Below are positions 4,294 to 59,075 of a stretch of 64,000 nucleotides of DNA, piece by piece. Made by a program: the position numbers and the translations under genes. Below the pieces are notes generated by a model. It searched no databases and was not told the origin of the DNA. It saw only the letters and a list, made by a program, of their open reading frames with translations. Origin of the DNA: an uncultured Verrucomicrobiota bacterium (GTDB lineage Bacteria; Verrucomicrobiota; Verrucomicrobiia; Limisphaerales; UBA9464); assembly GCA_964602595.1 (NCBI GenBank), contig CAZRRO010000012.1, positions 4,314 through 68,313 of the forward strand. The letters are read 5' to 3'. Positions within the stretch are counted from its first letter, which is position 1, and the number at the start of each line of letters is the position of its first letter.

Positions 4294-5772
4294 ATGGACA
4301 AACTCCTGCTCATCGATGACGAGGCGGACGTTCAATATAGCTTCCGCCGAATCTTCGATTCCCCTGACCTGGAACTTCACACCGCCTCCAGCGGAGAGGA
4401 GGGACTGCGGCTGATCTCTCAAGTTAAACCCGACTTGGTGATCTCGGACATCCGCATGGCCGGCATCAACGGTTTGGAGACGTTGCGGCGCATTCGCCAG
4501 TTGGATCCCAAACTGCCGGTCATCCTGATGACCGCCTACGGCACCACGCAAACGGCCATTGAGGCGATGAAGCTGGGGGCCTACGACTATCAGCTGAAGC
4601 CGTTTGACGTCCCCAAGCTCAAGGCGCTGGTCGCCAACGCGCTCAAGGCCGCCCGCGACATGCGGCAGGCGGTCATGCTGCAGCCGATGCTGGAGGCGGA
4701 AGACTACGACGTCGGGGTGGTTGGGCGTAGCGACGTGATGCAGAACGTCTTCAAGATGATCGGCCAAGTCGCAGCGACCGACGCGACCGTATTGGTCACC
4801 GGCGAAAGCGGCACCGGCAAGGAACTCGTCGCCCGGTCGATCTATTCCTACAGCCGTCGGTCCGATAAACCCTTCCTCGCGATCAACTGCGCGGCGATTC
4901 CCGATAATCTGCTCGAGTCCGAACTATTCGGTCACGAGAAGGGAGCGTTCACGGGAGCGACGCAGCAGCGTATTGGCAAGTTCGAGCAATGCGACGGCGG
5001 AACACTCTTCCTGGATGAGATCGGCGACATGTCTCCGGCCACCCAGACCAAGATGCTGCGCATCTTGCAGAGCGGCACCTTCGAACGGGTCGGCGGAAAC
5101 GAGACGATCCGGGTTGACGTTCGGGTAATCGCGGCGACCAACAAGAATTTGGAAGAGGAAGTCGCTCGCAAGCAGTTCCGCGAAGACCTGTTCTATCGCC
5201 TGAATGTAGTGCGGATTCACATGCCTCCCCTGCGGGAGCGGCGCAGCGATGTGCGCCTGCTGGTCGACTATTTCCTGCGCAAGCTCGCGGGGCCGGGAGG
5301 CAAGCCAAAGTCCATCGGGTCGGCCACTCTGGCCGCCTTGGAGAGCCATCACTGGCCCGGCAATGTCCGCGAACTGGAGAATGTTCTCAGGCGCGCCACG
5401 GTGGTGGCCAAGGGCCTGGCGATTCTGCCAGCCGACCTGCCCGTGGAGCTGATCGCGGGGCTGGCGCCGCTCCCCGCAACGGCCCGTGCCGAGGTTCCTG
5501 ATTTGCCGGCCTCGGGCCAGGGTGTCGCGCCCGCGCCGGTCGCTGCCGGTGGCGGAGATTTGCAATCGCTGGCCCAGGCGCTGTTCCGGCTCGCCCGGAC
5601 GGACGGTAAGCTGAAGGTCATTCCAGCGGTCGAACGAGTGCTGGTTATTGAGGCCCTGCGTGACACCCGGGGCAACCAAGTCCAGGCGGCCAAGCTGCTC
5701 GGCATCACCCGGGCGACCCTGCGCAAACGGATCGAGAAATTCGGCATCAAGCAGGAGTTGGCCGTGAACTGA
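4294..5772 (+). CDS. Sigma-54-dependent response regulator (NtrC family: REC - AAA+ sigma54 activator - Fis-type HTH)
   Basis: REC: MDKLLLIDDE...DLVISDIRM. AAA+: VLVTGESGTGKELVARSIY and the GAFTGA loop (ESELFGHEKGAFTGA). C-terminal HTH: QAAKLLGITRATLRKRIEKFGI. The annotated ORF starts upstream at 4222; MDKLL at 4294 is the likelier start. Confidence 0.85.
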   Translation: MDKLLLIDDEADVQYSFRRIFDSPDLELHTASSGEEGLRLISQVKPDLVISDIRMAGINGLETLRRIRQLDPKLPVILMTAYGTTQTAIEAMKLGAYDYQLKPFDVPKLKALVANALKAARDMRQAVMLQPMLEAEDYDVGVVGRSDVMQNVFKMIGQVAATDATVLVTGESGTGKELVARSIYSYSRRSDKPFLAINCAAIPDNLLESELFGHEKGAFTGATQQRIGKFEQCDGGTLFLDEIGDMSPATQTKMLRILQSGTFERVGGNETIRVDVRVIAATNKNLEEEVARKQFREDLFYRLNVVRIHMPPLRERRSDVRLLVDYFLRKLAGPGGKPKSIGSATLAALESHHWPGNVRELENVLRRATVVAKGLAILPADLPVELIAGLAPLPATARAEVPDLPASGQGVAPAPVAAGGGDLQSLAQALFRLARTDGKLKVIPAVERVLVIEALRDTRGNQVQAAKLLGITRATLRKRIEKFGIKQELAVN

Positions 5773-13733: not shown

Positions 13734-14636
13734 TCACCAACTTCCGCTTGCTCCGCCGCCGCCTGAACTGCCGCCACCGCCGCTGAAGCCGCCGAAACTG
13801 CCCCCGCCACCGCCCCAGCCACCCCAGCTCGAATGGCGGCCGGAGTGATCGAAGGCCCAGCCGCGCGGGGACCACATCCGGCCGCGCGAAAGTATCAGCA
13901 GCCAGACCAGCAGCAATATGCCGACGCCGAACAGCGGCGCGGCGCCCAGGCCGAAGAGATACGCAAAGGGATGGCCGAGGCCGCCGATGAAGATGCCGCG
14001 AAACCCTTGGGCCAGACCGCCCGCGACTCCGGACCGCATGCCGCTCAGGGCCCCGCCGATGAGGCCGGCCACCGCGCCCAGGGCCGCGATCCACCGCAGG
14101 CGTTCAAACGAGATCGCCGGCCGCGATTTTTGGCCGGAAGGGGCTCCGCGATACTCGCCGCGGGTGGCAGCCAGGATGGCGGTTACGCCGGCGCGAATGC
14201 CGGCCTCATAGTTGCCTTCCTTGAAACGGGGCGTGATTTCATTGGCGATGATCCGGCCGCACAGGGCGTCGGGCAGGGCGCCTTCGAGGCCATAGCCGAC
14301 CTCGATCCGCAGCTTCCGGTCTTGGGTGAAGACGGCCAGCAGGACACCGTTGTCGCGGGTGCGCTGCCCGATCTTCCAGGCCTGGAACGTCCGGTTGACG
14401 TAGTCTTCCAGCGCGGCGTTGGCGGGCAATGCGCGCTCAATCCAGACGATGACTTGGGACGAAGTGTCCCGCTCGAACGCCTCCAATTCCGAGGTCAATT
14501 GGGCGGCGGCCGAAGCCGAGAGAACTCCGGCACGGTCGGCCAGGTGGGTCGGCGGAGCCGGCGGCGGCGTCTGCCCACTGAGCGCGCAACTCAGCAGGAG
14601 AACCAGCCAGGTCGCCCATGTGCCGGATCGACTCAT
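13734..14636 (-). CDS. TPM-domain protein (YgcG-like) with signal peptide, C-terminal TM segments and Gly-rich tail
   Basis: Signal peptide MSRSGTWATWLVLLLSCALSG; TPM core DRAGVLSASAAAQLTSELEAFERDTSSQVIVWIE...NGVLLAVFTQDRKLRIEVGYGLE; tail WGGWGGGGGSFGGFSGGGGSSGGGGASGSW. The start is set at the ATG overlapping the lemA stop. Confidence 0.7.
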   Translation of the reverse strand: MSRSGTWATWLVLLLSCALSGQTPPPAPPTHLADRAGVLSASAAAQLTSELEAFERDTSSQVIVWIERALPANAALEDYVNRTFQAWKIGQRTRDNGVLLAVFTQDRKLRIEVGYGLEGALPDALCGRIIANEITPRFKEGNYEAGIRAGVTAILAATRGEYRGAPSGQKSRPAISFERLRWIAALGAVAGLIGGALSGMRSGVAGGLAQGFRGIFIGGLGHPFAYLFGLGAAPLFGVGILLLVWLLILSRGRMWSPRGWAFDHSGRHSSWGGWGGGGGSFGGFSGGGGSSGGGGASGSW

Positions 14637-15253
14637 TTCGCCGGGTTGCTGAAGTCGAAGTTCACCTTCGGGGCCTTCTCGCTGCCGGCGTCGGCGGCGA
14701 AATAAGGCTTCGGCTGAAAATTGAAGGTCCACGCGACCAGCACGGTGGGAAAGCGTTGCGACCGGGTGTTATACCGCTGCACGGCCTCGTTAAACCGCTG
14801 ACGCTCGACGGTGATGCGGTTTTCGGTGCCCTCCAGCTGGACCTGCAAGTCGCGGAAGCCTTGGCTGGCCTTGAGGTCGGGATACTTCTCGGCGACGACC
14901 AGGAGGCGCGACAAGGCGGAGCCGAGCGAACCTTGCGCGGCTTGGAACTGCTTGAGCTGTTCCGCGGTATCGGGTGCCGAACCTGGGGCGAGTTTGACCT
15001 GCCCGACCGAAGCGCGGGCCTCAGTAACTTCCTTGAGCACGTTCCGTTCGAAATTCGCTGACCCGGACACCGTGCTGACGAGGTTGGGAATGAGGTCTGC
15101 CCGGCGCTGGTAAACCGTCTCGACTTGCGCCCAGGCCTTGTCCACCTCCTGCCGGGTGCCGACGAGGCCGTTGTAACTGGTGCACCCGCCCACGCCGACT
15201 GCGACCAGCAGCCCGAACAGGGCCGCGACACTGAATGCGATGACTTTTCCCAT
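14633..15253 (-). CDS. lemA: LemA family protein
   Basis: N-terminal TM; RQEVDKAWAQVETVYQRRADLIPNLV...LLVVAEKYPDLKASQGFRDLQVQLEGTENRI is the LemA signature. Confidence 0.85.
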   Translation of the reverse strand: MGKVIAFSVAALFGLLVAVGVGGCTSYNGLVGTRQEVDKAWAQVETVYQRRADLIPNLVSTVSGSANFERNVLKEVTEARASVGQVKLAPGSAPDTAEQLKQFQAAQGSLGSALSRLLVVAEKYPDLKASQGFRDLQVQLEGTENRITVERQRFNEAVQRYNTRSQRFPTVLVAWTFNFQPKPYFAADAGSEKAPKVNFDFSNPAK

Positions 15254-15354
15254 GACGGGTTGATCTCTAGTTCCCTTCGGTCGGATGTCAGGTGGAACTT
15301 CGGCCGGGAAATCCCACCGGCGTTCGCGGCTCGACGTGGACGGCGAAGCCTTGG

Positions 15355-16770
15355 ATGTTCTCCCGCGTAATGGCTCAGGCGGACCTGTTCAGCGTAGCCC
15401 GGCCCGCATCGGATTCGCCGGCGGGGCAGGCGGGTGCTGTCGTCGAGACGACCCGGTCGGCCGCCCCGCTGGCGGCCCGGATGCGTCCGCGGCATCTGTC
15501 CGAATACGCCGGACAAACGCACATCCTCGCGCCGGGGCAGTTGCTGCGCCGGGCCATCGAGGCGGACCGTATCCAGTCGCTGATCTTTTTCGGCCCGCCG
15601 GGCACGGGCAAAACGTCATTGGCCCAAATCATCGCGGCCCACACCAAGGCGAAGTTCGAGCGTCTCAGCGGGGTAGAGTCCAATGTCGCCGACATGCGCC
15701 GGGTGCTGGCCGCGGCCTCGAACCGCCTCGTGAACTCGGGCCAGCCCACGATCCTGTTCGTGGACGAGATCCACCGGTTCAACAAGTCGCAGCAGGATGT
15801 CCTCCTGCCGGACGTCGAGAGCGGGGTGGTGAAGCTCATCGGGGCGACGACCCACAATCCGTTTTTCTTCGTCAATTCGCCCCTCGTCTCGCGGTCGCAG
15901 ATCTTCGAGCTGAAGCCGCTGAGCGAGGGCGAATTACTCGCGCTGCTCCGGCGGGCCTTGGCCGACGAGGAGCGTGGCCTCGGGCACCTGCGGCTGACAG
16001 TGACCGAGGAGGCCCTGGCTCACTTGGCCCGGGTGTCCGACGGGGACGCCCGCAAGGCCTTGAATTCGTTGGAGATCGCCGCCCTCACGACCGAGCCGTC
16101 GGCCGACGGAATCGTCCGCATCGACCTCGCGGTGGCCGAGCAATGCATCCAGAAGAAGGCCATCGTCTATGACGGCGACGGCGATGCGCACTACGACACG
16201 ATCAGCGCCTTCATCAAGTCCATGCGCGGTTCCGATCCCGATGCGACGCTCTACTGGCTGGCGAAGATGATCCATGCCGGCGAGGATCCTCGGTTCATCG
16301 CCCGGCGGATCCTGGTCCACGCGGCGGAAGACGTCGGCTTGGCCGACCCGATGGCGTTGGTTCTGGCGAATTCCGCCTGCCAAGCCGCCGAGGGCATCGG
16401 CTGGCCGGAAGCGCGCATCCCGATCGCCGAGGCGGCCATTTACATTGCGACGGCGCACAAGAGCAATTCGGTGATCACGGCGATTGATGCCGCCTTGGCC
16501 GACGTCCGGAGCGGGCGCACTTTGGAGGTGCCCGCCCACCTCAAGGATGCCCACTATGCCGGGGCCAAGCAGCTGGGGCACGGCGAAGGCTACCAGTATG
16601 CGCACAGCTTCGCGGGACACTTTGTGCCGCAGGATTATCTGGGCGAACCCAGGCGCTATTACGAACCCAGCGATCAGGGCGTGGAGAAGAAGATCCGCGA
16701 ACGGCTCGAGCGCTGGCGCTTTCTGGCCGCCGAGGCGGCCGCAAACAAAACCAAGGATGGTGTGCCATGA
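15355..16770 (+). CDS. rarA: Replication-associated recombination protein A (AAA+ ATPase)
   Basis: FFGPPGTGKTSLA; ILFVDEIHRFNKSQQDVLLPDVE; GATTHNPFF; C-terminal MgsA domain. Confidence 0.85.
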   Translation: MFSRVMAQADLFSVARPASDSPAGQAGAVVETTRSAAPLAARMRPRHLSEYAGQTHILAPGQLLRRAIEADRIQSLIFFGPPGTGKTSLAQIIAAHTKAKFERLSGVESNVADMRRVLAAASNRLVNSGQPTILFVDEIHRFNKSQQDVLLPDVESGVVKLIGATTHNPFFFVNSPLVSRSQIFELKPLSEGELLALLRRALADEERGLGHLRLTVTEEALAHLARVSDGDARKALNSLEIAALTTEPSADGIVRIDLAVAEQCIQKKAIVYDGDGDAHYDTISAFIKSMRGSDPDATLYWLAKMIHAGEDPRFIARRILVHAAEDVGLADPMALVLANSACQAAEGIGWPEARIPIAEAAIYIATAHKSNSVITAIDAALADVRSGRTLEVPAHLKDAHYAGAKQLGHGEGYQYAHSFAGHFVPQDYLGEPRRYYEPSDQGVEKKIRERLERWRFLAAEAAANKTKDGVP

Positions 16771-19024: not shown

Positions 19025-19396
19025 ATGTCAGCACTGCCCAGAATCTCCGAAACCGAGTGGGAGATCATGCGCGTCGTCTGGGGCAAAAGCCCCATCACGG
19101 CAGCAGAGATCATCGAGGAACTCACCAAGTCCGATTCCTCCTGGCACCCGGTCACCGCCAAGACCCTGATCAACCGCCTCGTCAAGAAGGGGGCCTTGGG
19201 TTTCGACCAGGAAGGTCGGGCCTATCTCTACCGGCCGCTCGTCAGCGAGAAGGACTGCATCAGCGCGGTGAGTTCCTCGTTCATTGAACGGGTATTTGGC
19301 GGATCCCTGTCCGGTTTGGTCGCGCATTTCGTAGAGGGCCGGAAGCTTTCGCCCAAACAGTTGCGGGATCTGCGCAAGGTAATGGACGAGAAGTAA
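19025..19396 (+). CDS. blaI: BlaI/MecI/CopY family transcriptional repressor
   Basis: 123 aa; ISETEWEIMRVVWGKSPITAAEIIEEL...WHPVTAKTLINRLVKKGAL is the penicillinase-repressor winged helix. Confidence 0.8.
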   Translation: MSALPRISETEWEIMRVVWGKSPITAAEIIEELTKSDSSWHPVTAKTLINRLVKKGALGFDQEGRAYLYRPLVSEKDCISAVSSSFIERVFGGSLSGLVAHFVEGRKLSPKQLRDLRKVMDEK

Positions 19397-19424
19397 CCGG
19401 CGCCGGGATTGGCCAGCCTGAAAT

Positions 19425-20468
19425 ATGGAAGCCCCCTTCATCGCGGAGTTCTTGGGACAGCTCGTCCGGGCCACCGGGCAGGCGTCCCTCCTTGCGTTGG
19501 TGATCTGGCTTGTGATTCATGCGCTGGGTGAGCACCTGAATCCCGAATGGCGTTGCCGGCTCTGGCTGCTGGCCATCGTCCGCCTCGCCTGGCCGGTTTC
19601 CCTGCCCAGTCCGGTCAGCCTTTTCAACTTGGTCGCGGCCCCGGCCAGTTGGGCGGGGCCCGAACATTCCTCGCGCTATCTCGCCGACGAATTGCTGGCC
19701 CAGCTCGAACGCAGTTTGGAGCAGCCATGGGTGGCGGTGGTCTGGGCGATCGGGGCCGGTGCCTTGTTGTTCCGGGGGGTGCTCGCGGCGGGCTGGGCGT
19801 TTTGGGTGCGGGCGTCGGCCCGTCCCTTGGCTTCCTGGGAGGCATGGTGGCTCTTGCAAGAATGCAAGGGGGTGTTGGGAGTGGCTGATCCGGTAGCGAT
19901 CCTGGAGTCGGCCCGCGTCAAGAGCCCCTGCCTCCTCGGGCTTTTCCGGCCGGCGCTGGTCCTGCCCGCGGGTCTTTCCAGCGAACTTTCCGCCAATGAA
20001 CTGCGGCTGATCATGCTGCATGAGCTGGCCCACCTGCGTCGTCGTGACCTTGCGCTCAATTGGGTGCTGGCGGCGGTCGAGACCATCCATTGGTTCAATC
20101 CCGTCGTCTGGTCGTTAACCCGCAAGATTCGCGACGAACGGGAGGAAGATTGCGATGCCCGTGCGTTGGCCACCCAACCGCAGTCCTGCCGCGAATATGG
20201 CGAAGTGCTCCTGAAGTTGCTTGAACGGGATTGTGACGGCGCTACCCCGACCATGGCGACGGCGATGCTGGGCGACGTCGAGGACGAAGTGGCGCCCCTC
20301 CGGCATCGGCTGAACGCCATCATGAAGTTCCGGCCTGGCAGCCGGCGCTGGGTGGTCGGGTTCTGCACTTGGCTGGCGGTTGCCTTGGTTGGACTGACCG
20401 ATCCGATCCCCGCAGCTCCGCTGGATGTTGCGGCGGCACCCTCCGCGCAGGTCTCTCGAGCCGCCTGA
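19425..20468 (+). CDS. BlaR1/MecR1-like M56 peptidase-domain membrane protein (no extracellular sensor domain)
   Basis: Four N-terminal TMs; HELAHLRRRDL (HExxH) M56 motif. It ends at 347 aa without a PBP/transpeptidase-like sensor. It follows blaI by 28 bp. Confidence 0.75.
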   Translation: MEAPFIAEFLGQLVRATGQASLLALVIWLVIHALGEHLNPEWRCRLWLLAIVRLAWPVSLPSPVSLFNLVAAPASWAGPEHSSRYLADELLAQLERSLEQPWVAVVWAIGAGALLFRGVLAAGWAFWVRASARPLASWEAWWLLQECKGVLGVADPVAILESARVKSPCLLGLFRPALVLPAGLSSELSANELRLIMLHELAHLRRRDLALNWVLAAVETIHWFNPVVWSLTRKIRDEREEDCDARALATQPQSCREYGEVLLKLLERDCDGATPTMATAMLGDVEDEVAPLRHRLNAIMKFRPGSRRWVVGFCTWLAVALVGLTDPIPAAPLDVAAAPSAQVSRAA

Positions 20469-23957: not shown

Positions 23958-26900
23958 TCAAGTCTTCGGCTTCTGCGCCTCCTCCAGCACCTTATGGAAG
24001 CGCTCCACGAAGGTGTGTTCGTTGGCCAGCATCTCTTGGGTGATTTCGACTTCCACCGTTCCTTGCTTTGCCCGGGTCGCGAGCAGCTCTTGGGCGGTCC
24101 GGAGATGATCGCGCTGCTGCGTGGCCAAGTCTTTCAGCGACGCCAGCGTGCTGTGGATCATCTCCATCTCGTGCGAGAGGCTGTCGATCTTGCCCGTGAC
24201 GGCGGAACCCTGCGCGGCGCTGACGGTGCGGCTGAGATCTTCGCCGAGCGCCTTCAATCCTTCTCCCAGTTGTGCGCCGAACTTCTCGATGCCGGCGGTA
24301 GACTCCGGAGCCGGCACCGGAGCGGCGCCGGGCGTTGCGGCCGCGGCGATGACGCGGCCGAGGCGCTCTTCCAACGTCGTGCGCAGCGATTCGAGGCTCT
24401 GGCCGATGGAACCCAGATCCAAGGTAATCGGCGCCTGCGGACGTGACGCGGCGGCGGCGACGGTGGTGCGAAGAGATTCCAAACTCTGCCCCAGCGAACT
24501 CACGTCGAGCACGACAGGGTCCTTTGGCTTGGCGGCGGCGATGGCCAGCGTGGTCTGGATGGATTCGAGGCCCGTCTGGAACAACGAGAGCTGGGCCACG
24601 ACGCGGCCGACGGGGTCGTTCTGGTCGGTGCCGCGGGTGAACTGGTTTCGCTGGAAGGTCTTCTTGATGTCGGCCCAGCGCGCGGCTTCGTCGGGCTTGA
24701 GTTCGCCGATGAGTTCCTTGAAACGGAGCAGATTCGCCTCGGCGCCGGTGGTGAGCGTCTGCGATTCGCCGCGGTAGTGGCCGATGACGAGCGCGCGGAC
24801 CTCGTCGTCGTTCATGATGGCGGCGACCTTTTCCGCGAGGCGGTTCATGTTGCGGTAGGAACCCTGGAGCTTGAACGCGGGCTCGGTGCGGAACTCGTCG
24901 GCCTGGCCGGCGGAGGCGATGTATTCCTCGTTCACCCGCATGACGACGTCGCGGATGGCCACAAGCTTCTTCATGACGGAGAGCACCTCGTCCAACTCCT
25001 GCGCGGAATAGGTTCCCTCCAAGCCTTCGGCCGTGCGCTGGCCGGTCTCGGCCATGCGGACGAACGCGCGGATGTCGGCCTGGCTGCGCACGGCGAGCGG
25101 CGCGAGCACGGCGTTCGAGGTGACGGCGTTCTCGAGGTAACTCGCCTTGAACCACTCGGCGTTGGCACCGATGACGTCGCCCAGGTTGTAGGTGTCGGCG
25201 CGGTTCGCGAGCATGTCGGGAATTTTGAACTTCTGCCCGCTCTCGGTGTAGGGATTGCCCGCCATGACCACGACGACCTTGCGGCCGCGCAGGTCATAGG
25301 TGCGGGGTTGCTTGCGCCAGACACCCTCGATCTTCCGCTGGCCGTCGCAGAGGGAGATGAACTTCTGCAGGAACTCGGGATTGCAGTGCTGGATGTCGTC
25401 GATGCAGATGAGGGCGTTGTCACCCATCTCCAGCGCGAGGTTCAGCTTGGAGATCTCCTCGCGCGCGGCGGCGTTGGGCGCCTCCTCGGGATCGAGCGAC
25501 GTGACGGCGTGGCCGATGGCCGGGCCGTTGATCTTCACGAAGACGATGCCAAGCCGGCTGGCGACGTATTCGAGCAGCGTGGTCTTGCCGTAACCGGGCG
25601 GGGAAATGAGGAGCAACAGGCCCATCAGGTCCGTGCGTTTGGCCGCACCGGCGGCGCCGATCTGCTTGGCGAGGTTGTCGCCGACCATCGGGAGATAGAC
25701 GCGGTCGGTGAGCTGGTTGCGGACGAAGGACGACAGGACGCGCGGCTTGAATTCATCGAGCCGGAGCCGCTTGCGTTCGCGGTCGAGCAACTGGCCCTTG
25801 AGCCGATGGTAAGCCTCGAAGCGCGGCACGGCCTCGGTCTCGAAACGGCGCAGGCGCGCGGTAAAGTCGAGGTAGTCGAAGGTGTAGCGGTTGGCCTCGA
25901 TGCGCGGATGAGCGCCGCGCAGGGCTTCGAGCACGCGGCGGGATTCGGCATGGACCGGCGTGCGCGGCAAGGCATCGCCGCAGAAGAGGATGGCGGTGGT
26001 CTCTTCGAGGTGCGACGTAGCCGCCGACGTGAGGAGGCGGACGTCCGTTGAACTGTTCGACGCTCCTTCCGCCTCGTTACCTCGGCGGCTACCGGACAGC
26101 AGAAATCCCTTCACCCAGTCGCGCACCAGTTCCAGCTCGCTGGAGGGATGCCCGTTCAACGCGGCACGGGCGGCGGCGAAGGTGTCGTCGTGGCCTTTGG
26201 CGACGAGGTGTTGTTGGAAGGCCGTGGCCAACTGATCGGCCTCGCGGGTGACGGTGAACGATTCGCCGTCGCTCAGTTCTTGGAACAGGTATTCGCCGGC
26301 CTCGGCTGCCAGCGTTTCGGGATAGAGCGGCTGGGTCTTCAGGAACTCGCCGATGAGTTTCTGGAGCGCGATGACGTAGTCCTGCTGGACGGGATCACCG
26401 GGGAAGAGCCGGTTGCGTTCGCCGAAGGCCTTGAGCTTGGCGGTCCAGAGCGCGCGGGTTTCGGCGGGGCAGAATCGGCTCCAGTAAACCACGGCGCACG
26501 CCCGGGCTTCGGGACGGAATCGCGCGCGTTGCAGCGCCAGATGTGTCTCCGCCAGCACAGTAAAGATGCGCGCGCCATCGATATCGTGGAGGCCCTTGGT
26601 GTAGCCGTCCTGGTAACGCGCGGCCATGAACTCCTGCACGGCGACAAGGCGCTGCTCTTCGGAGAGGGCGAGAAAGTCTTCGAGTTTGGACGCGCCAAGC
26701 ATCTGCCACGCGAGATACTCGGCGCGGTAAACCTCCGCGTTCTCGGAAATCACTTCCTGGTCCCAGACCTGCCGCGTGGCCAGGTAGTCCGCGTCGGTGA
26801 TCGCGTCGAAATACTTCGTGCTCGTCAGGTGGAAGTGCGGCTGGCCGTCGCGCTGGACGATGGTCAGGTCGAGCGGCTGCGTGTTGACGTTGAACTTGTG

Positions 26901-29498
26901 TTTGCCGAGCTGGATGACGGCCGTGCCGTCGACGAAAAGCTCCTGCTTGTCCTTGAGCTGCCGCACCGCGTCCTGCTGGACGGTCTTGAGCCGGCCTTGC
27001 AGGTCGTCTGCCTTCACGGAATCGCCCAGCGCCAACAACTGGTCGATCGTCTCGCGGACCTTCGCCGTCATCAGATCCGACGCCATGTAGGTGTGGATCT
27101 CCTCCAGCGACTTGAACCCGGCGAGGCGGTTCTGGACGACCTTGAGGATGCGTTCGGCGGCGGTCAGCAGCGCGCCGGCGCGTTTGTTGCGCTGCTCGAC
27201 GAGCGCGATCTTCCGCTGCTCGAAGGCCTCGTAGAACTCGGTGCGGCGGTCGGAAAGCTGGACGGTGTATTCGTCGAACCCGGCGAAGGCGCCCTCCATC
27301 TCCTCCAACTGGACGGTGAGGCGGTTGAGATACTCGTCGCATTTCTCCGGCGTATCGCAGAGGTCCAGGTAGCTGGAAGCGGACTGGCCGAGGAGCTTGA
27401 GCTGCGCGTTGAACTGGGCCGCGCTCTCTGAGGCCACGAGCGCCTGAAGATGCTTCTTCAGCGCGGCCTTGACCTGGTTCAGCGTCGAATAGACCGCCGT
27501 GATGCTGTCGATGATGCGCGTGGTCTCGGTCGCGTCGTCGATCTTCAGGCTGTTGACGATCTCGATGAGCATCTCCAGCTCGCCGCCCGCGTCGGCCACG
27601 GCCTTCTCCAGCTTCCGGCCGTCGGCCACCTTCGCAACCTTGTCCACGGAAGCGAGGTGTTCGGCAGCCTGCTTGCGGTAGGGTTCGAGCGCCTCGGGCT
27701 TCAGCAGGAACTTCACGCACTGCGCGGAAAGCTCGGCGAGCTGGGCGGTCACGGCCTGCTCCAGCGTCTCGATGGCGGCGACGTCGATGTAGCGGACCTC
27801 GCGCGTGGTGATCAGTTCGCCCCGGAGATGGCGGAGCGCGGCGAGGTTATGGACGAAGTCCTCCAGCTTGGAGAACGCCGCCCGGCGCGCTGCCTGGAAG
27901 CGTTCTTCGCAACGTTTCTTCACGTCGGCCAGCTTCAGGACGGCCTCGTGCTGGAGCCGGCGGACCTTGGCGAATTCATCGACCGCCTTGTCCGCGATCT
28001 CGCGGAGCTGCTGGAGCGCGTCGTTGATCTGGAACCCATCCGCGCTGGCGAGCCAAGGATAGGCGTCAAGCATCGCGGTGCAGCGGCGAACGAGGTCGGA
28101 ATACAGCTCGGCGTAGGGCGTCTCCTTGCCGGCGAGGGTCAGCACCTCGTTGCACTCGGCGAGACAACGGACCACGTCCTTGTTGCCGACCTGGTAGAGG
28201 AAGGCGTCCTTCTGCCCGGCCGGTTCGTGGCCGAGCTGGTAGAAGGGCGTCTGGCGAAGCTGGATCTGGTGGTGCTTCTGCGGCACGTCGTCCGCGCGGA
28301 AGAGGATGAGCTGGCCGTTGGGAAACAGCGCGAAGCCATGGCAGGCGATGCGTTCCTCCACCTTCTGCTCGATCAGCCGGTAGGGCATCAGCACGTATTC
28401 GCCCGAGGCGCGGGCATAGAAGACGTAGAGCGAGTCCTCGCCGTTGGGCGAATGGACCACGCGCTCCAGGATCATGCCGGTTTCCTTCGAGTCGAAGCGC
28501 TTCAGCTCGCCGGTGCCGAGATAGTAGCCGTCGGGGAAGATCAGCCCGTGTTCCTCCGGCAAACGCACGCAGGAATCGCCGATGGAATCCACCCGCACGA
28601 CGGAGCGGAGCTTCTCGTTGAAGATGAAGAAGCGGGCGGCGGTTTCCTTGTAGGGCCGGATCTTGAGCAGGATCAGATGGTCCAGCTCGGCGAAGGCGAT
28701 CTCGGCGTCGTCCACCTTCTGGTGGCGGTCGTCCACGGGTTCCGAGTAGATGCCCTCGCCGGTGGCGGTGTTGTCCTCGACCTTGATGGTCAGGTCGCCA
28801 CCGACGCACTCGACGAAGACGCGTTCCGCGATGGAGACGTGCGGATGGTCGCCGTAGCGGTAGGACTCGCGGTCGGGCGTCTGCCAGCGGAAATCGTGCG
28901 TGGCCGGATAACCGACGCGGCGGTATTCCGCCTCCGCGCGGCCGTCCAGGTAACGGAGGTTGCCGTCGTTGAAGGCCCACTTGAAGACGGCGTAGTCGTT
29001 GAGCGACGCGCCGGTGCCGAACTTGGCGTAAAGGTTCGCGCCGATGACGGCGAATTTCCGGAACGCGGTCTTCTCGTAGACGTTGTAGAGGCGCTTGAAG
29101 TCGGTGACGAACTGCTTGTCCTGGAGCGGCTCCAGCGACTCCTCCTTGAACCCGCCCGTGGCCTCGTCGCGCCGGTAGATGGCGAAGACGTCCGCCAGGT
29201 CCATCTCCTTCTTGAGGCCGAAGCGGACGTTGAAGGCGAAGAGGAACCGGCCGTGCCCGAGCTGGACCATGTCGCGCGGGATGCAGTTGTGCGCGGTGGT
29301 GACGCGGTCGGCCTGGAGCAGCTTGGATTCGATGCGCCCGAAGACCTCCTGCCGCCGGGCGTCGAGCTGGCCCATGCGCTCGCGCAACGTCGCCGAGTTC
29401 GCCGCCAACCGCTGCCGGATGATCTCGTAGGTCGCACCGGCGAGGGCGGAGGGGGCGGGAGCGGGCGAGGGTTGGGCTGGTTGATTGGGTTCAGCCAT
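23958..29498 (-). CDS. Giant (1846 aa) multidomain protein with embedded AAA_5 (MoxR/midasin/dynein-like) ATPase core, long coiled coils and C-terminal tandem ~33-aa repeats
   Basis: Single uninterrupted ORF with consistent codon bias. Walker A LLLISPPGYGKTTLLEY lies at nt ~25590. Walker B ALICIDDIQHCNPEFLQKFISLCDGQRKIEG...VVVVMAGNP lies at ~25400; this is the AAA_5 pattern DEIN...LLE...ATxNP. No TM segments. Confidence 0.8.
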   Translation of the reverse strand: MAEPNQPAQPSPAPAPSALAGATYEIIRQRLAANSATLRERMGQLDARRQEVFGRIESKLLQADRVTTAHNCIPRDMVQLGHGRFLFAFNVRFGLKKEMDLADVFAIYRRDEATGGFKEESLEPLQDKQFVTDFKRLYNVYEKTAFRKFAVIGANLYAKFGTGASLNDYAVFKWAFNDGNLRYLDGRAEAEYRRVGYPATHDFRWQTPDRESYRYGDHPHVSIAERVFVECVGGDLTIKVEDNTATGEGIYSEPVDDRHQKVDDAEIAFAELDHLILLKIRPYKETAARFFIFNEKLRSVVRVDSIGDSCVRLPEEHGLIFPDGYYLGTGELKRFDSKETGMILERVVHSPNGEDSLYVFYARASGEYVLMPYRLIEQKVEERIACHGFALFPNGQLILFRADDVPQKHHQIQLRQTPFYQLGHEPAGQKDAFLYQVGNKDVVRCLAECNEVLTLAGKETPYAELYSDLVRRCTAMLDAYPWLASADGFQINDALQQLREIADKAVDEFAKVRRLQHEAVLKLADVKKRCEERFQAARRAAFSKLEDFVHNLAALRHLRGELITTREVRYIDVAAIETLEQAVTAQLAELSAQCVKFLLKPEALEPYRKQAAEHLASVDKVAKVADGRKLEKAVADAGGELEMLIEIVNSLKIDDATETTRIIDSITAVYSTLNQVKAALKKHLQALVASESAAQFNAQLKLLGQSASSYLDLCDTPEKCDEYLNRLTVQLEEMEGAFAGFDEYTVQLSDRRTEFYEAFEQRKIALVEQRNKRAGALLTAAERILKVVQNRLAGFKSLEEIHTYMASDLMTAKVRETIDQLLALGDSVKADDLQGRLKTVQQDAVRQLKDKQELFVDGTAVIQLGKHKFNVNTQPLDLTIVQRDGQPHFHLTSTKYFDAITDADYLATRQVWDQEVISENAEVYRAEYLAWQMLGASKLEDFLALSEEQRLVAVQEFMAARYQDGYTKGLHDIDGARIFTVLAETHLALQRARFRPEARACAVVYWSRFCPAETRALWTAKLKAFGERNRLFPGDPVQQDYVIALQKLIGEFLKTQPLYPETLAAEAGEYLFQELSDGESFTVTREADQLATAFQQHLVAKGHDDTFAAARAALNGHPSSELELVRDWVKGFLLSGSRRGNEAEGASNSSTDVRLLTSAATSHLEETTAILFCGDALPRTPVHAESRRVLEALRGAHPRIEANRYTFDYLDFTARLRRFETEAVPRFEAYHRLKGQLLDRERKRLRLDEFKPRVLSSFVRNQLTDRVYLPMVGDNLAKQIGAAGAAKRTDLMGLLLLISPPGYGKTTLLEYVASRLGIVFVKINGPAIGHAVTSLDPEEAPNAAAREEISKLNLALEMGDNALICIDDIQHCNPEFLQKFISLCDGQRKIEGVWRKQPRTYDLRGRKVVVVMAGNPYTESGQKFKIPDMLANRADTYNLGDVIGANAEWFKASYLENAVTSNAVLAPLAVRSQADIRAFVRMAETGQRTAEGLEGTYSAQELDEVLSVMKKLVAIRDVVMRVNEEYIASAGQADEFRTEPAFKLQGSYRNMNRLAEKVAAIMNDDEVRALVIGHYRGESQTLTTGAEANLLRFKELIGELKPDEAARWADIKKTFQRNQFTRGTDQNDPVGRVVAQLSLFQTGLESIQTTLAIAAAKPKDPVVLDVSSLGQSLESLRTTVAAAASRPQAPITLDLGSIGQSLESLRTTLEERLGRVIAAAATPGAAPVPAPESTAGIEKFGAQLGEGLKALGEDLSRTVSAAQGSAVTGKIDSLSHEMEMIHSTLASLKDLATQQRDHLRTAQELLATRAKQGTVEVEITQEMLANEHTFVERFHKVLEEAQKPKT

Positions 29499-29612
29499 GA
29501 GTCAGCGGGGAAAGACGGGATGCGTGGGGCGGTCGGGCGGCTGGTTTGCCGCCTGAACGGCTGCCAGCTATTGGCCGGGAGTTGAGGCAAGCGGTGCGAA
29601 CGGGATGCGGAA

Positions 29613-29813
29613 GGTGCGGAGCACCGCCAGAAAGTAGCGCACAGCGTAAGCTGTGGGTTTCGTGTGGACCAATTGCGAGCCCCGGAGGGGCGAAAGAAAG
29701 TCTGGGCCAGATCGATTGAGCGACACACTGCCGCCCCTCCGGAGCTGGAACTTTAATGGGGACGCTGACCCACAGCTCACGCTGTGGGCTACTATCTGCC
29801 GCCGCTCCGCGGC
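29613..29813. repeat. Composite palindromic REP/BIME-like element, copy A (~201 bp)
   Basis: Terminal inverted repeats ggtgcggagcaccgcc ... ggcggcggctccgc. Internal hairpins gcacagcgtaagctgtggg and cccacagctcacgctgtggg. Internal stem ccccggaggggcg...cgcccctccgg. It shares >85% of modules with copy B. Confidence 0.6.
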
Positions 29814-29858
29814 TGCCCGAACCCACCAACGTCCGGCTTGATTGGATGAGTTCCATCT

Positions 29859-30311
29859 TCATTCAAACACGTAACGCTCGTCGTATTCGATCTCATGCCT
29901 CTTCAGGAACGAGATCAGCTCTTCCTGAAACGAACCCTTCCGGTGGTGTTCGTCCTGCCCGGCAATGTAGTCCAACACTCCCTGCTTTTGGGAAACGCTC
30001 ACGCTGAACGCCGAATAGCCGAGCTGCCATGCGAACGCCCGTTGCTCTGGGAAGTTCTCATGCACCCATTTGGAGGAATTCGCCTTCAACTTCCCGACGA
30101 AATCGGACGGAGCGGCAGTAGCGGGCAGCGAAGCGAGAATGTGGACATGATCAGCGACGCCGTTGATGAGCAAGGCAACGCCGCCGAGCTCCCGGATGAT
30201 CCCGCCCATGTAGGGAAACACCCGCGCCCGCAGGTCGGGAGTCAGCATCGGCCGACGATCCTTCGAGCTGAACACGATGTGGTTCAGTAGTTGGGTGTAG
30301 GTGCGGGGCAT
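29859..30311 (-). CDS. REP-associated tyrosine transposase (IS200/IS605-family Y1 HuH transposase, RAYT)
   Basis: 150 aa; HuH motif ADHVHILASLP; catalytic Tyr region YIAGQDEHHRK. Flanked on both sides by the REP/BIME copies. Confidence 0.8.
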   Translation of the reverse strand: MPRTYTQLLNHIVFSSKDRRPMLTPDLRARVFPYMGGIIRELGGVALLINGVADHVHILASLPATAAPSDFVGKLKANSSKWVHENFPEQRAFAWQLGYSAFSVSVSQKQGVLDYIAGQDEHHRKGSFQEELISFLKRHEIEYDERYVFE

Positions 30312-30388
30312 GGAGGCAATGATCCTCGGACTAAGCGGATCGGAACGGGAGAAGACGAGCAGCGCGAGAGCCGTGGTTTCATCTCGGA

Positions 30389-30589
30389 GGTGCGGAGCAC
30401 CGGCAGACAGGAGCCCACAGCGTCAGCCGTGGGTTGCGTGGTCAAGCAGGACAAACCCCGGAGGGGCGAAAGAGTGCGAAGGCCATGCTTTGATCGTGTG
30501 ATTCTGCCGCCCCTCCGGGGCTTCGGAACCAGAGGGGACGGGAACCCACAGCTCACGCTGTGGGCTACTTTCTTTCGGCGCTCCGCGCC
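30389..30589. repeat. Composite palindromic REP/BIME-like element, copy B (~201 bp)
   Basis: Same modular structure as copy A: ggtgcggagcaccgg ... cccacagcgtcagccgtggg ... ccccggaggggcgaaaga ... ctgccgcccctccgg ... cccacagctcacgctgtgggctactttct ... cggcgctccgcgcc. Confidence 0.6.
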
Positions 30590-30627
30590 TGAAGAAATTT
30601 TCCGCGGCCTAAAGGGCTTTGCAGGTT

Positions 30628-30922: not shown

Positions 30923-33079
30923 TCAGGCTTTCACCACCGTCTCCGCCTTCACCTCACCTAGTCCCTTTTCCTTCACCAGCGCGAGGGCAGACTTGATGGT
31001 GGCCTTTACACCGGCGTCGTCGGTGGAGGCGACGAGTTTGGCGAGCAGGGCGGACAGCGTGAGGTTCTTCAGATCCTCGGTATTGATGCCGAAGTCGGCG
31101 ACCCATTGGCGGAGCTGGGTCTTGAAGTGCTCGGGATCGCCGTTGAAAAAGGTCTCCTTGATGTCGGTGAGCGTGGCGCTGTTCTGCACCATCCGGTCCA
31201 CGGATTTCCCGGTGCCGATGCTGCGGACGATCTTCTCGAAGAAGTCGTTCTCGCCGCCGACGATGTCGATCTTGGCGGTCTTGAGCGCCTCGGAGACGAC
31301 GCTGGCGTTGGCCTGGGCCACGTCGCGCTGGACGTTGATGGCGGCGAGCTCGACGTCGCGTTCCTTCTGGAGGCGGAGCTTGAACTCCTCGTGCTCCTGG
31401 CCGGCGGCGTGGAGCAGCTTCATGGCGTCGGCCTTCAGGTGGATGGACTTCGCCTCCGCGGTGCCGCGGGCCTCGATGCCGGTGGCGATGGCGAGTTCCT
31501 TCTCCTTCGTGCCTTCGGCCTCGGCTTCGGCCTGGGTCTGGGTATTGGACGCCTGGACAGCGCCCTTGGCCTTGATGACGTCGGCTTCGGCCAAACCGAC
31601 TTCCTTGATGGCAGCGGCTTCGGATTTACGGGCGCTGGCCTTGGCCATGGTGACCTTCGCTTCGGCGAGTCCCTTGGCGGCTTCGCGCGCAGCGGTGCCT
31701 TCGGCTTCCTGCTCGGCGGCGTGGCGGCGCTTGTCGGCGACTTTGGCCTCGGCGTCGGCCGTGGTCTGGAGACGTTCGGCATCGCGCAAGGCGGCTTCGC
31801 GGCTGGCCTCGGCGGCGGTGATGGTCTTGATCTTGTCGGCCTCGGCGAGGTTGCGCTCGACCTCCTTCTGGGCCTCGGAGGCGACGACCTTCTCGGTCTG
31901 GTCCTTCTTGGCGTTCATCTCCGCCTCGATGAGCGTGACCTCGCGGACGCGCTCGGCGGTCATGCGGGCTTCGATGTTGCGCTTCTCCTCCTCCTGCTGG
32001 GTGACGGCCTTCTGCTCGGCGACGACGGTGGCGCGCTTGCGTTCCACTTCGACGGCGGCCTCGTTGACCTTCACTTCCTTGTCCATCTCGGCGAGCGAGA
32101 CGGTGCGCTCGCGGCGGACGCGGGCTTCCTCGCCTTCTTGGACGGCTTCCTGTTCTAGGCGCTGCTTCTCCTTCTTCACGGTGAACTCACGCTCCTGCAC
32201 GGCGCGGTTCATGTCCTCGGTGCGGAGGCGGATGGATTCCTCGGCTTCCAGGCGCTTGGCTTCGACTTCTTGACGGCGGGCTTCGATGACCTTGCGGGCC
32301 TCGGCTTCCTCGTTCGCCTTCACCTCGTTGATGGCGCGGGTCTGCTTGGCGGTGTCCTCCTCATTGCGGCGGCGCTGCTCGCGCTTGGCGATGTCGGCGT
32401 CGGCGTTCTCCTTCTCGACCTGCACCTGGGCGCGTTGTGAAAACTCGTTGGCGATGACGCGTTCGCGCTGGGTGATCTCGGTGATCTTCTTGATGCCCTC
32501 GGAATCGAGCACGTTGCTCGGGTCATGCTGGTCGAGCGGGGTCTGCTCGAGGTAGTCGATCGCGACATCTTGGAGGAAAAAGCCGTCCAGGTCCTTGCCG
32601 ATGGTGGCCTGGATCTGCTCGCGGAACTTGATGCGTTCGGTGAAGAGCTCGTGGAACTCCATCTGTTTGCCGGCGGTCTTGAGCGCCTCGGAGAACTTCG
32701 CCTCGAACAGCTCGCGCAGCTGGGCCATGTCGGACACGCGGTCGACACCGAGCATCTGGGAAACCTTCTTCACGCTCTCCTCGGTCGCTTCGACGCGGAT
32801 GTAGAAGGCGACGGAGATGTCGGCACGTATGTTGTCCTTGCAAACGAGGCCGTCCTTGCCCTTGCGGTGGATCTCCAGCTTCTTCACGGAGATGTCCATC
32901 TCCTCGAAGTTCTGCACGACGGGAATGCGCACCATGTAATCGAAGGCGACCCGCAGGCCGCCCCAGCCGACGCTGATGCCGGCCTTGCCGGGATGGATTT
33001 TACGGATGAGCAGGGCTGCGGTGACGAGGCCCACAAGCAGGAGTGCGACGACTCCGGCGATGATGAGGACGTAAAACAT
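30923..33079 (-). CDS. Flotillin-family (SPFH/band-7) protein with long Glu/Ala/Lys-rich coiled coil
   Basis: N-terminal TM MFYVLIIAGVVALLLVGLVTAALL; SPFH domain VPVVQNFEEMDISVKKLEIHRKGKDGLVCKDNIRADISVAFYIRV; ~350-aa EA-repeat coiled coil; C-terminal flotillin tail. Antisense ORFs in this region are low-complexity artefacts. Confidence 0.85.
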   Translation of the reverse strand: MFYVLIIAGVVALLLVGLVTAALLIRKIHPGKAGISVGWGGLRVAFDYMVRIPVVQNFEEMDISVKKLEIHRKGKDGLVCKDNIRADISVAFYIRVEATEESVKKVSQMLGVDRVSDMAQLRELFEAKFSEALKTAGKQMEFHELFTERIKFREQIQATIGKDLDGFFLQDVAIDYLEQTPLDQHDPSNVLDSEGIKKITEITQRERVIANEFSQRAQVQVEKENADADIAKREQRRRNEEDTAKQTRAINEVKANEEAEARKVIEARRQEVEAKRLEAEESIRLRTEDMNRAVQEREFTVKKEKQRLEQEAVQEGEEARVRRERTVSLAEMDKEVKVNEAAVEVERKRATVVAEQKAVTQQEEEKRNIEARMTAERVREVTLIEAEMNAKKDQTEKVVASEAQKEVERNLAEADKIKTITAAEASREAALRDAERLQTTADAEAKVADKRRHAAEQEAEGTAAREAAKGLAEAKVTMAKASARKSEAAAIKEVGLAEADVIKAKGAVQASNTQTQAEAEAEGTKEKELAIATGIEARGTAEAKSIHLKADAMKLLHAAGQEHEEFKLRLQKERDVELAAINVQRDVAQANASVVSEALKTAKIDIVGGENDFFEKIVRSIGTGKSVDRMVQNSATLTDIKETFFNGDPEHFKTQLRQWVADFGINTEDLKNLTLSALLAKLVASTDDAGVKATIKSALALVKEKGLGEVKAETVVKA

Positions 33080-58880: not shown

Positions 58881-59075
58881 GCCGCGGAGCGGCGCCAGAC
58901 GGTAGCCCACAGCGTAAGCTGTGGGTGGTCGAAGAAAGGCGACCAAGCCCCGGAGGGGCGAAAGAAGTTCCAGATGCCTGTCCACCCCGATCTGTCGCCC
59001 TGCTGGGGCTCCGTTGGTAAGGCTTTGAATCCCCGGGCTGACGCCCGGGGCTACTTTCTGCCGCCCCTCCGGCGC
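58881..59075. repeat. REP/BIME-like element, copy C (rearranged variant) immediately downstream of uvrA
   Basis: It shares the modules gccgcggagcggcgcc, gtagcccacagcgtaagctgtggg, ccccggaggggcgaaaga, gctactttctgccgcccctccgg. The second hairpin is replaced by ccccgggctgacgcccgggg. Confidence 0.55.

Follow-up and report, generated by a model that had tools for sequence, protein, structure and literature searches.

The window analyzed here comprises 64,000 nucleotides (nt) of DNA from an uncultured Verrucomicrobiota bacterium (GenBank assembly GCA_964602595.1, contig CAZRRO010000012.1, forward-strand positions 4,314 to 68,313), and its minus strand encodes an 1846-residue ATPase of the DUF3686 family together with a YqiK-type flotillin. 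The genes for these two proteins are co-inherited almost without exception, and the pairing is near-obligate. The window thereby adds a further member to an already published, functionally uncharacterized family. The function favored here, with middling confidence, is that of an ATP-driven remodeler of flotillin assemblies, or of clients within them, in the service of inner-membrane maintenance or the envelope-stress response.

The linkage between the two genes was probed from both directions. The forward test used 80 species-representative genome loci encoding a relative of the ATPase (40–96% identity) from Verrucomicrobiota, Planctomycetota, Desulfobacterota, Myxococcota, Betaproteobacteria, and one metagenome-assembled genome labeled Bacteroidales. 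A flotillin homologue lies directly upstream, on the same strand, in all 58 loci that have at least 2.5 kb of upstream sequence; among the remaining loci the flotillin is cut by the contig end in 10, and 12 are uninformative. One locus (L017) has just 1.6 kb of upstream sequence, which holds another gene, making it a possible exception to the pairing. The reverse test used 80 metagenome loci retrieved with a flotillin alignment, 56 of which have at least 1.5 kb of downstream sequence, and a DUF3686 domain follows the flotillin directly in 55 of these. The same gene order is found in distant members from Myxococcus, Hahella, Paraglaciecola, Sulfidibacter, and Nanopelagicales, while RefSeq lists a "flotillin family protein" or "SPFH domain-containing protein" beside a "DNA repair ATPase" on a Streptomyces plasmid and on pQBR103. 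Overall, the pairing is seen in Verrucomicrobiota, Planctomycetota, Myxococcota, Desulfobacterota, Gamma- and Betaproteobacteria, Acidobacteriota, Actinomycetota, and Bacteroidota. An earlier reading of the window made from the letters alone (hereafter the sequence-only reading) had suggested a survey of this kind, in which homologues do adjoin SPFH genes, and its proposal of a flotillin-associated, ATP-driven system without known function is strengthened by the two-way synteny.

The flotillin consists of an N-terminal transmembrane (TM) helix (residues 1–25), an SPFH domain (residues 27–172), an Ala/Glu-rich coiled coil, and a C-terminal domain specific to its subfamily. The first three parts resemble Escherichia coli YqiK (31% identity over 452 residues, E = 9e-37), whereas the C-terminal domain of about 170 residues, although conserved across phyla, has no counterpart in that protein. 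The flotillin is anchored in the membrane by its single N-terminal helix, and since the positively charged residues Arg26 and Lys27 come after this helix, the bulk of the protein is predicted to be cytoplasmic. The full-length sequence returns no Pfam match, while its N-terminal 241 residues match Band_7/SPFH (E = 2.4e-9, 38 bits against a cut-off of 23.6); the precomputed Pfam field is also empty for the orthologues at four other loci (L081, L083, L085, and L086). The Ala/Glu-rich coiled coil probably triggers a composition-bias filter that hides Band_7 in the full-length protein. Since Band_7 fails to match the flotillin at full length, neighborhood surveys based on Pfam miss the SPFH link.

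An operon of this kind has been described previously. In section 19 of their 2024 mSystems paper, Ravi et al. report operons with CesT/Tir-PspA, a flotillin, a "novel AAA+ with coiled-coil and beta-propeller," and a YqiJ/YuaF-type three-TM protein, and they point out the wide distribution of "abbreviated operons" that lack PspA (PMC11237479). They interpret the operon in terms of membrane dynamics and propose chaperone-like assembly roles for band-7/AAA+/PspA contexts, in one comparative-genomics paragraph that assigns no AAA+ clade, does not quantify the linkage, and contains no experiment (PMC11237479). We infer from the match in architecture and neighbors, rather than from a comparison of accessions, that the window operon is the one described in that paper. 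The genes and the architecture of the ATPase are the same, and relatives in Hahella, Andreprevotia, and pQBR103 show the PspA-linked form; the window form differs in being shorter, without PspA, YjfI, or a YqiJ-like gene, and in carrying an IS200-like insertion between its two genes. The novelty that the sequence-only reading had attached to the association therefore does not stand.

In its fuller form, the operon encodes a YqiJ/NfeD-like membrane protein, the YqiK-type flotillin, and the DUF3686 ATPase, and PspA and YjfI precede these in some Proteobacteria. YjfI(DUF2170)-PspA is located just upstream of the operon in Hahella (L083) and Andreprevotia (L075), and a PspA/IM30 gene and polyamine genes precede it in pQBR103. 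The small membrane protein is found upstream of the flotillin in 28 of 80 genome loci and 47 of 64 metagenome loci. By profile comparison it is homologous to YqiJ (hhalign against the E. coli protein, probability 89.5%, E = 2e-6), a relation seen at the profile level only, as BLASTP against E. coli YqiJ gave no match. The window contains no YqiJ-like open reading frame (ORF), and the neighbors of the 80 genome loci include no third gene, conserved across phyla, whose product could be a client. The E. coli YqiJ-YqiK and Bacillus subtilis YuaF-FloT (YuaG) systems resemble the window locus in their YqiK-like flotillin, and its relatives in the YqiJ homologue. In E. coli, however, no ATPase gene follows yqiK, and Hinderhofer et al. 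(2009), who classified YqiJ-YqiK as an operon of the NfeD2-SPFH2 type, mention no ATPase (PMC2636767). Literature searches found no papers on DUF3686 or PF12458, none joining a flotillin with a "DNA repair ATPase," and no experimental study of the ATPase family, consistent with the earlier description of such giant single-AAA proteins as poorly characterized.

The ATPase gene is the 1846-codon ORF anticipated by the sequence-only reading, with an ATG start and minus-strand orientation. Its product has a peak 19-residue Kyte-Doolittle mean of 1.23 and no hydrophobic segment, which agrees with the claim of a soluble polypeptide; the enzyme is cytoplasmic and soluble and, judging by its conserved residues, should be catalytically intact. 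DUF3686 (PF12458) is matched with E = 3.1e-165 over residues 38–480, corresponding to profile positions 2–447 of 448. More than 3500 relatives were found at E ≤ 1e-10 in a database clustered at 90% identity, there are 667 clusters at 50% identity, and full-length colinear homologues occur in at least eight phyla, so the family cannot be called rare, as had been supposed. A chance ORF is ruled out by the strength of the DUF3686 match and by the homologues, many of which are colinear over 99–100% of the length. A fusion artefact, the possibility against which the earlier reading had wanted the ORF checked, was likewise rejected. Most of the best 120 matches (65–94% identity) are colinear across 98–100% of the query; the exceptions, about seven in number, are truncated proteins or matches to roughly half of it. 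The set of DUF3686, DUF7902, and a single C-terminal AAA+ domain is shared by all 120 of these and by 120 of 120 profile matches. Full-length representatives of the family have 1500–2036 residues, and the window protein lies in the range of about 1600–1900 residues used as a criterion for the architecture. There is no NCBIfam model for the ATPase, and PDB sequences, searched with both the protein itself and a family profile of 61 sequences, include no solved relative; the matches obtained (p97/VAT, RuvB, NVL, and Rix7, E ≥ 5e-4) are at the level of the P-loop only.

The domain layout (Table 1) was derived from Pfam matches, conservation, and AlphaFold (AF2) models calculated from alignments of 42–43 sequences with 34–82% identity. 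The mean predicted local distance difference test score (pLDDT) is 82.3 for the model of residues 1–1159 and 81.7 for that of residues 1160–1660. In the first model, an N-terminal helix (residues 18–53) leads into a propeller of about 28 strands in about seven blades (residues 59–416), where pLDDT is mostly 85–93. A Foldseek search with this 1159-residue N-terminal model matched propellers, such as those of Sec12, EED, and prolyl oligopeptidase. The propeller is followed by the long helices and then by a middle region that gives no Pfam match at E ≤ 5 when searched in isolation (residues 855–1260). Within the helical part of the middle region is a G-x-H-D-x-D motif (residues 969–974, nt 26577–26594) in which Gly969, His971, and Asp974 are invariant and Asp972 is conserved in at least 90% of sequences; this motif could bind a metal or ligand or contribute to an interface. 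About 1250 residues precede the AAA+ module, rather than the roughly 1100 estimated from the sequence alone. The C-terminal tail, for which Pfam returns only noise, had been described as carrying tandem repeats. Repeats are indeed present, but there are just two 29-residue units (approximately residues 1660–1717, nt 24348–24521, with cores at residues 1670 and 1699), and they lie in a tail that varies across the family.

The AAA+ module is the most conserved part of the ATPase, as measured over 61 homologues with 30–48% identity. The motifs noted by the sequence-only reading are where it had placed them, at nt ~25150–25640: GYGKT corresponds to residues 1302–1306 (nt 25595–25581), DDIQH to residues 1367–1371 (nt 25400–25386), and MAGNP to residues 1412–1416 (nt 25265–25251). 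The residue range that it had expected for the AAA domain (about 1150–1330) clashes with these nucleotide positions; the core spans residues 1258–1470, and the lid extends to about residue 1640. Invariant in the 61 homologues are the Walker A sequence S-P-P-G-Y-G-K-T, including Lys1305, the Walker B pair Asp1367-Asp1368 in place of the usual Asp-Glu, M-x-G-N-P-Y-T with the sensor-1 residue Asn1415, P-D-M-L-x-x-R1433 (PDMLANRAD in the window protein), and R1537-x-x-P-x-F-x-x-Q-G-S-Y-R1549-x-M, which in the window reads R1537-x-E-P-x-F-x-L-Q-G-S-Y-R1549-x-M. Based on their positions in the AF2 model, Arg1433 is a putative Arg finger, and Arg1537 and Arg1549 are putative sensor-2 residues. Each element expected of an active AAA+ protein (Walker A, an acidic Walker B pair, sensor-1, an Arg finger, and a sensor-2 Arg) is thus found by sequence or by position in the model. 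The invariance of the catalytic residues indicates that the ATPase is under selection to stay active.

The clade of this module was assessed from Pfam scores and from the fold. The AAA_5 match that the sequence-only reading had predicted is present, at residues 1295–1421 with 29.1 bits. However, the generic AAA model scores higher there (30.2 bits), and an MgsA/RarA AAA+ gene elsewhere in the window (15292–16770, plus strand), used as an internal control, reaches 27.5 bits with AAA_5, so that this match is not diagnostic of a clade. At the level of the fold, the closest known structures are the MoxR remodelers CbbQ and NorQ. The model has a pre-sensor-1 β-hairpin between α3 and β4, with strands at model residues 230–235 and 238–243 (residues 1389–1402 of the protein). 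The label "AAA_5/MoxR-like" thus finds its support in the modeled fold, and the Pfam match alone would not suffice for it. Membership in the classical AAA clade (PF00004: FtsH, Vps4, p97) was considered and rejected, as the model possesses the pre-sensor-1 hairpin and a single invariant Arg1433 rather than paired arginines; the sequence matches to p97/VAT span only about 35–70 residues around Walker A. An SMC/RecN/SbcC-type ATPase was rejected as well, since SMC_N, AAA_23, and related models are not matched and the P-loop, Walker B, and sensors lie together at residues 1299–1433 instead of in a split head. Pfam, conservation, and the AF2 models (residues 1–1159 and 1160–1660) all show a single AAA region. 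Consequently, the protein is not built like midasin or dynein, and the earlier term "midasin-like" is apt for the similarity of the single domain but not for the six-module build.

The mechanism proposed for the pair can be outlined as follows. The ATPase would assemble into a ring through its AAA+ domain, as do its nearest structural relatives and other AAA+ proteins that have a pre-sensor-1 hairpin. The ring would thus bear several coiled-coil arms, each of them with its own propeller, and these parts would then dock on the cytoplasmic flotillin assembly, most likely at the flotillin C-terminal domain, which is specific to this subfamily and missing in the YqiK of E. coli, where there is no ATPase partner. 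Finally, hydrolysis of ATP would remodel the flotillin assembly by assembling, opening, or dismantling it, or would remodel clients held there. A role in envelope stress or membrane maintenance is suggested by the PspA linkage in Proteobacteria. A narrower version of this proposal, advanced only tentatively, is that the DUF3686 ATPase is a machine dedicated to assembling, opening, or dismantling flotillin cages. Recognition of the cage would be by way of the propeller and the coiled-coil arms, and the enzyme would be to flotillin what Vps4 is to ESCRT-III.

Several observations weigh against the remodeling function. The Asp-Asp pair in Walker B, where Asp-Glu is usual, could signify slow or regulated hydrolysis or a role as a switch, and the segment after β2 (GPAIGHAVTSLDP) does not contain the aromatic pore-loop motif of threading unfoldases. 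The region corresponding to helix 2 is modeled as a short helix and a 14-residue loop (residues 1325–1342) between β2 and α2, free of a hairpin in the AF2 model, although the model cannot exclude one, and no gene for a VWA/MIDAS partner is found among the conserved neighbors in 80 loci (a lone VWA gene on the opposite strand occurs in Myxococcus only). Given the lack of a helix-2 insert in the model and of a conserved VWA partner, the mechanisms of MoxR proteins are not simply transferable. With regard to the pairing, one metagenome locus (L156) encodes a flotillin of the subfamily that is genuinely without the ATPase, and the correlation across the 58 loci between the identities of flotillin and ATPase to the window copies (r = 0.96), which in itself speaks for the pair, partly reflects shared phylogeny. 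In the window itself, the operon is broken up by the IS200-like gene and is without the YqiJ-like gene.

Comparison with known systems places the proposed remodeling function in context. In HflK/C-FtsH and prohibitin-m-AAA, an SPFH cage or scaffold is coupled to an AAA+ machine at the inner membrane. FtsH is a membrane-anchored AAA protease of the classical clade, enclosed on the periplasmic/intermembrane side, whereas the window ATPase is soluble and cytoplasmic, with a MoxR-like fold, no protease domain, and a propeller and coiled coils. Because the ATPases of HflK/C-FtsH and prohibitin-m-AAA are membrane-bound proteases of the classical clade, the analogy is one of function and not of homology. 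The MoxR family (CbbQ, NorQ, RavA) shares only about 14% sequence identity with the window ATPase, which is about six times larger and has its own N-terminal region of propeller and coiled coils. With Vps4/ESCRT-III and the PspA-associated AAA+ proteins, the shared concept is that of an AAA+ ring that remodels a polymer on the membrane, and PspA is linked genomically to the operon in some Proteobacteria. However, Vps4 is a classical-clade AAA protein with an MIT domain, which the window ATPase does not have, and the window contains no ESCRT-III or PspA gene. Midasin/Rea1 and dynein concatenate six AAA modules per chain, in contrast to the one found here.

Other functions can be envisaged for the same architecture. 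The flotillin might serve purely as a platform while the ATPase, without remodeling the flotillin, acts in the manner of MoxR as a chaperone in the assembly or maturation of other membrane-associated client complexes brought to flotillin microdomains, the propeller being a built-in adaptor that replaces the VWA protein. The nearest folds, CbbQ and NorQ, belong to proteins that mature Rubisco and nitric oxide reductase, propellers are generic protein-binding modules, and Ravi et al. propose chaperone-like assembly roles (PMC11237479). Nevertheless, no third, client-type gene is conserved across phyla; the sole constant partner is a flotillin that bears a subfamily-specific extra domain. This arrangement is accordingly regarded as possible but somewhat doubtful. 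A membrane-coat or vesiculation device, in which propeller and helices form a protocoatomer-type coat with the flotillin that is recycled by the AAA+ domain, comes to mind from the top Foldseek matches, which include subunits of the intraflagellar transport complex A (IFT-A), a nuclear pore complex chain, and the clathrin heavy chain, all of propeller-plus-helical build, and from the origin of the window in Verrucomicrobiota. The PVC (Planctomycetes-Verrucomicrobia-Chlamydiae) superphylum, which includes this phylum, has membrane-coat-like proteins, and eukaryotic flotillins act in clathrin-independent endocytosis. Yet the TM-scores of these matches are 0.07–0.15, indicating that only the propeller is matched, and the IFT-A, nuclear pore, and clathrin matches, with scores of 0.07–0.12, were rejected as evidence for a coat protein on this ground. 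The helical part is modeled by AF2 as long coiled-coil helices without an α-solenoid, and the family is equally common in phyla without internal membranes, which together render a coat improbable.

The sequence-only reading had also suggested defense, and a large nucleoside triphosphatase with a repeat-type sensor domain is an architecture found in many conflict systems. An anti-phage or abortive-infection system built from a membrane scaffold and such an enzyme could further appeal to sub-threshold PADLOC matches (mad8, E = 6e-4, at the P-loop; LmuB, E = 1e-3, at the coiled coil) and to the few copies on megaplasmids. PADLOC-DB v2, however, gives no significant match for the ATPase and none of any kind for the flotillin, and the family is found in 0 of 2.9 million viral contigs and in 13 of 72,556 plasmid records, mostly chromids or megaplasmids. 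No effector, such as a nuclease or toxin, is encoded at the locus, and its flanks are housekeeping genes that are syntenic within lineages, in a stable chromosomal context. The suggestion of defense is not upheld by these results and is considered very unlikely. Least credible of all is a function in DNA repair, for which the names speak (Pfam labels DUF3686 "ATPase involved in DNA repair," and "DNA repair ATPase" is the name at NCBI), along with weak matches to RuvB at the level of the P-loop. These matches cover about 35–60 residues around Walker A (E ≥ 2.5e-5 in NCBIfam and ≥ 9e-4 against PDB sequences), Pfam detects no DNA-binding, nuclease, or SMC/ABC-type head domain, and the invariant genomic partner is a membrane flotillin rather than a repair gene. 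No paper was found that supports the name, and the database designation "DNA repair ATPase" is unsupported.

The window locus is a reduced, two-gene, and slightly degraded form of this widespread flotillin operon. The flotillin gene is co-oriented with the ATPase gene and upstream of it, as the "tail-to-head" arrangement of the sequence-only reading implied, but the two are not directly adjacent, being separated by a 1424-nt spacer that contains an IS200-like gene. The spacer has a median length of about 200 nt in relatives and reaches 1 kb or more, as it does in the window, in 9 of 58 loci. The IS200-like gene is an insertion and no functional part of the operon. Together with the two flanking palindromes of about 220 nt, it forms an arrangement resembling a unit of repetitive extragenic palindromes (REP) and a REP-associated tyrosine transposase (RAYT). 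The 22-nt core of the palindromes (ACCCACAGCTYACGCTGTGGGC) has 6 matches in the window, compared with 0.01 expected, and recurs at 58905–58926. A homologue of the IS200-like gene, in either orientation, occupies the same spacer in 11 related loci. A scan for promoters and terminators found 0 promoter-like sites, and terminator-like sites at chance level, none of them on the minus strand.

The pair is flanked in the window, on the opposite strand, by genes for a dihydroorotase-like amidohydrolase and a dimethylglycine-dehydrogenase-like enzyme, which are unrelated housekeeping genes. In 25 Verrucomicrobial loci, a protein of about 270 residues is encoded directly 3′ of the ATPase gene (for example, L001:6343-7368 and L008:15727-16590); its conserved central domain lies between an N-terminal coiled coil and a Pro-rich linker, the motif DPLARFKRMP is found at the C-terminus, and Pfam returns only coiled-coil noise for it. 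This protein is missing from the window and from locus L063, though the sequence beyond its site is homologous. On pQBR103, a megaplasmid of Pseudomonas fluorescens SBW25 (L168, NC_009444.1 85464-100867), the pair ends a long same-strand cluster in the order PspA/IM30, rhomboid, DUF2491, DUF350, DUF1190, glutathionylspermidine-synthase-like protein, hypothetical protein, SPFH protein, and "DNA repair ATPase." Following the flotillin at L156 (L156:1536-11106) are a GFO/IDH-type oxidoreductase, an ORF without a Pfam match, a CsgG-like protein, and a protein of more than 1429 residues with ankyrin repeats and a CsgG-like region. At 13734–15253 on the minus strand of the window, 9 kb from the operon, are overlapping genes for a LemA protein (14633–15253) and a TPM-domain protein (13734–14732). 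Both are membrane-associated families, and TPM is among the PspA-context partners of Ravi et al. At 19025–20468 on the plus strand, a gene for a BlaI/MecI-type repressor (Penicillinase_R) is followed by one for a BlaR1-type M56 peptidase, a sensor-repressor pair unrelated to the operon.

Table 1. Features of the flotillin-ATPase locus in window coordinates, with the evidence for each.
Feature	Position (nt)	Strand	Evidence
ATPase gene (DUF3686 / coiled coil / AAA+; database name "DNA repair ATPase")	23958..29498	-	ORF; Pfam DUF3686, DUF7902, AAA, and AAA_5; homologues; no TM segment
Variable C-terminal tail, aa 1641-1846	23961..24578	-	60-80% gaps in family alignment
AAA+ lid and subsequent helices, aa 1471-1640	24579..25088	-	Conservation, AF2
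AAA+ α/β core, aa 1258-1470	25089..25727	-	Walker A, Walker B, pre-sensor-1 hairpin, sensor-1, putative Arg finger
Middle region, aa 855-1250: small β domain (aa 861-899) and helical domain (aa 925-1250)	25749..26936	-	AF2, conservation
Long-helix / coiled-coil region, aa 433-854	26937..28202	-	AF2: helices of 50-58 residues
DUF7902 (PF25472), aa 602-684, within long-helix region	27447-27695	-	Pfam E = 5e-25
DUF3686 domain, aa 38-480: N-terminal helix and ~7-bladed β-propeller	28059..29387	-	Pfam PF12458, AF2, Foldseek
Palindromic composite element, copy 1	29602..29824		57-nt arms, 79% complementary
IS200-like Y1 transposase gene, in spacer	29859..30311	-	Pfam Y1_Tnp E = 3e-22; NCBIfam IS200, 61 bits
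Palindromic composite element, copy 2	30388..30591		Direct repeats D1 and D2 at 776-nt spacing; inverted repeat I3
YqiK-type flotillin gene, 718 aa	30923..33079	-	Band_7 match of N-terminal fragment, YqiK similarity, TM segment, 19-orthologue alignment
Flotillin C-terminal domain, ~aa 545-718	30926-31447	-	19-orthologue alignment; motifs HEEF, IDIVGGE, FFDKIV, VDR

The roles of bacterial flotillins, and the building and turnover of their large assemblies, are still poorly understood. The near-obligate, pan-bacterial coupling of this flotillin subfamily to a MoxR-like AAA+ protein that appears catalytically intact offers a concrete handle on the question of flotillin assembly. We know of no ATP-dependent flotillin regulator in any organism, and if the DUF3686 ATPase is a machine dedicated to flotillin cages, it would be the first energy-dependent regulator to be identified for a flotillin microdomain. 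Relatives are present in tractable hosts, including Myxococcus, Pseudomonas fluorescens (pQBR103), Vibrio campbellii, Proteus mirabilis, and Streptomyces. The finding is of value for the family, a way into flotillin biology that experiment has yet to take, and not for the window locus.

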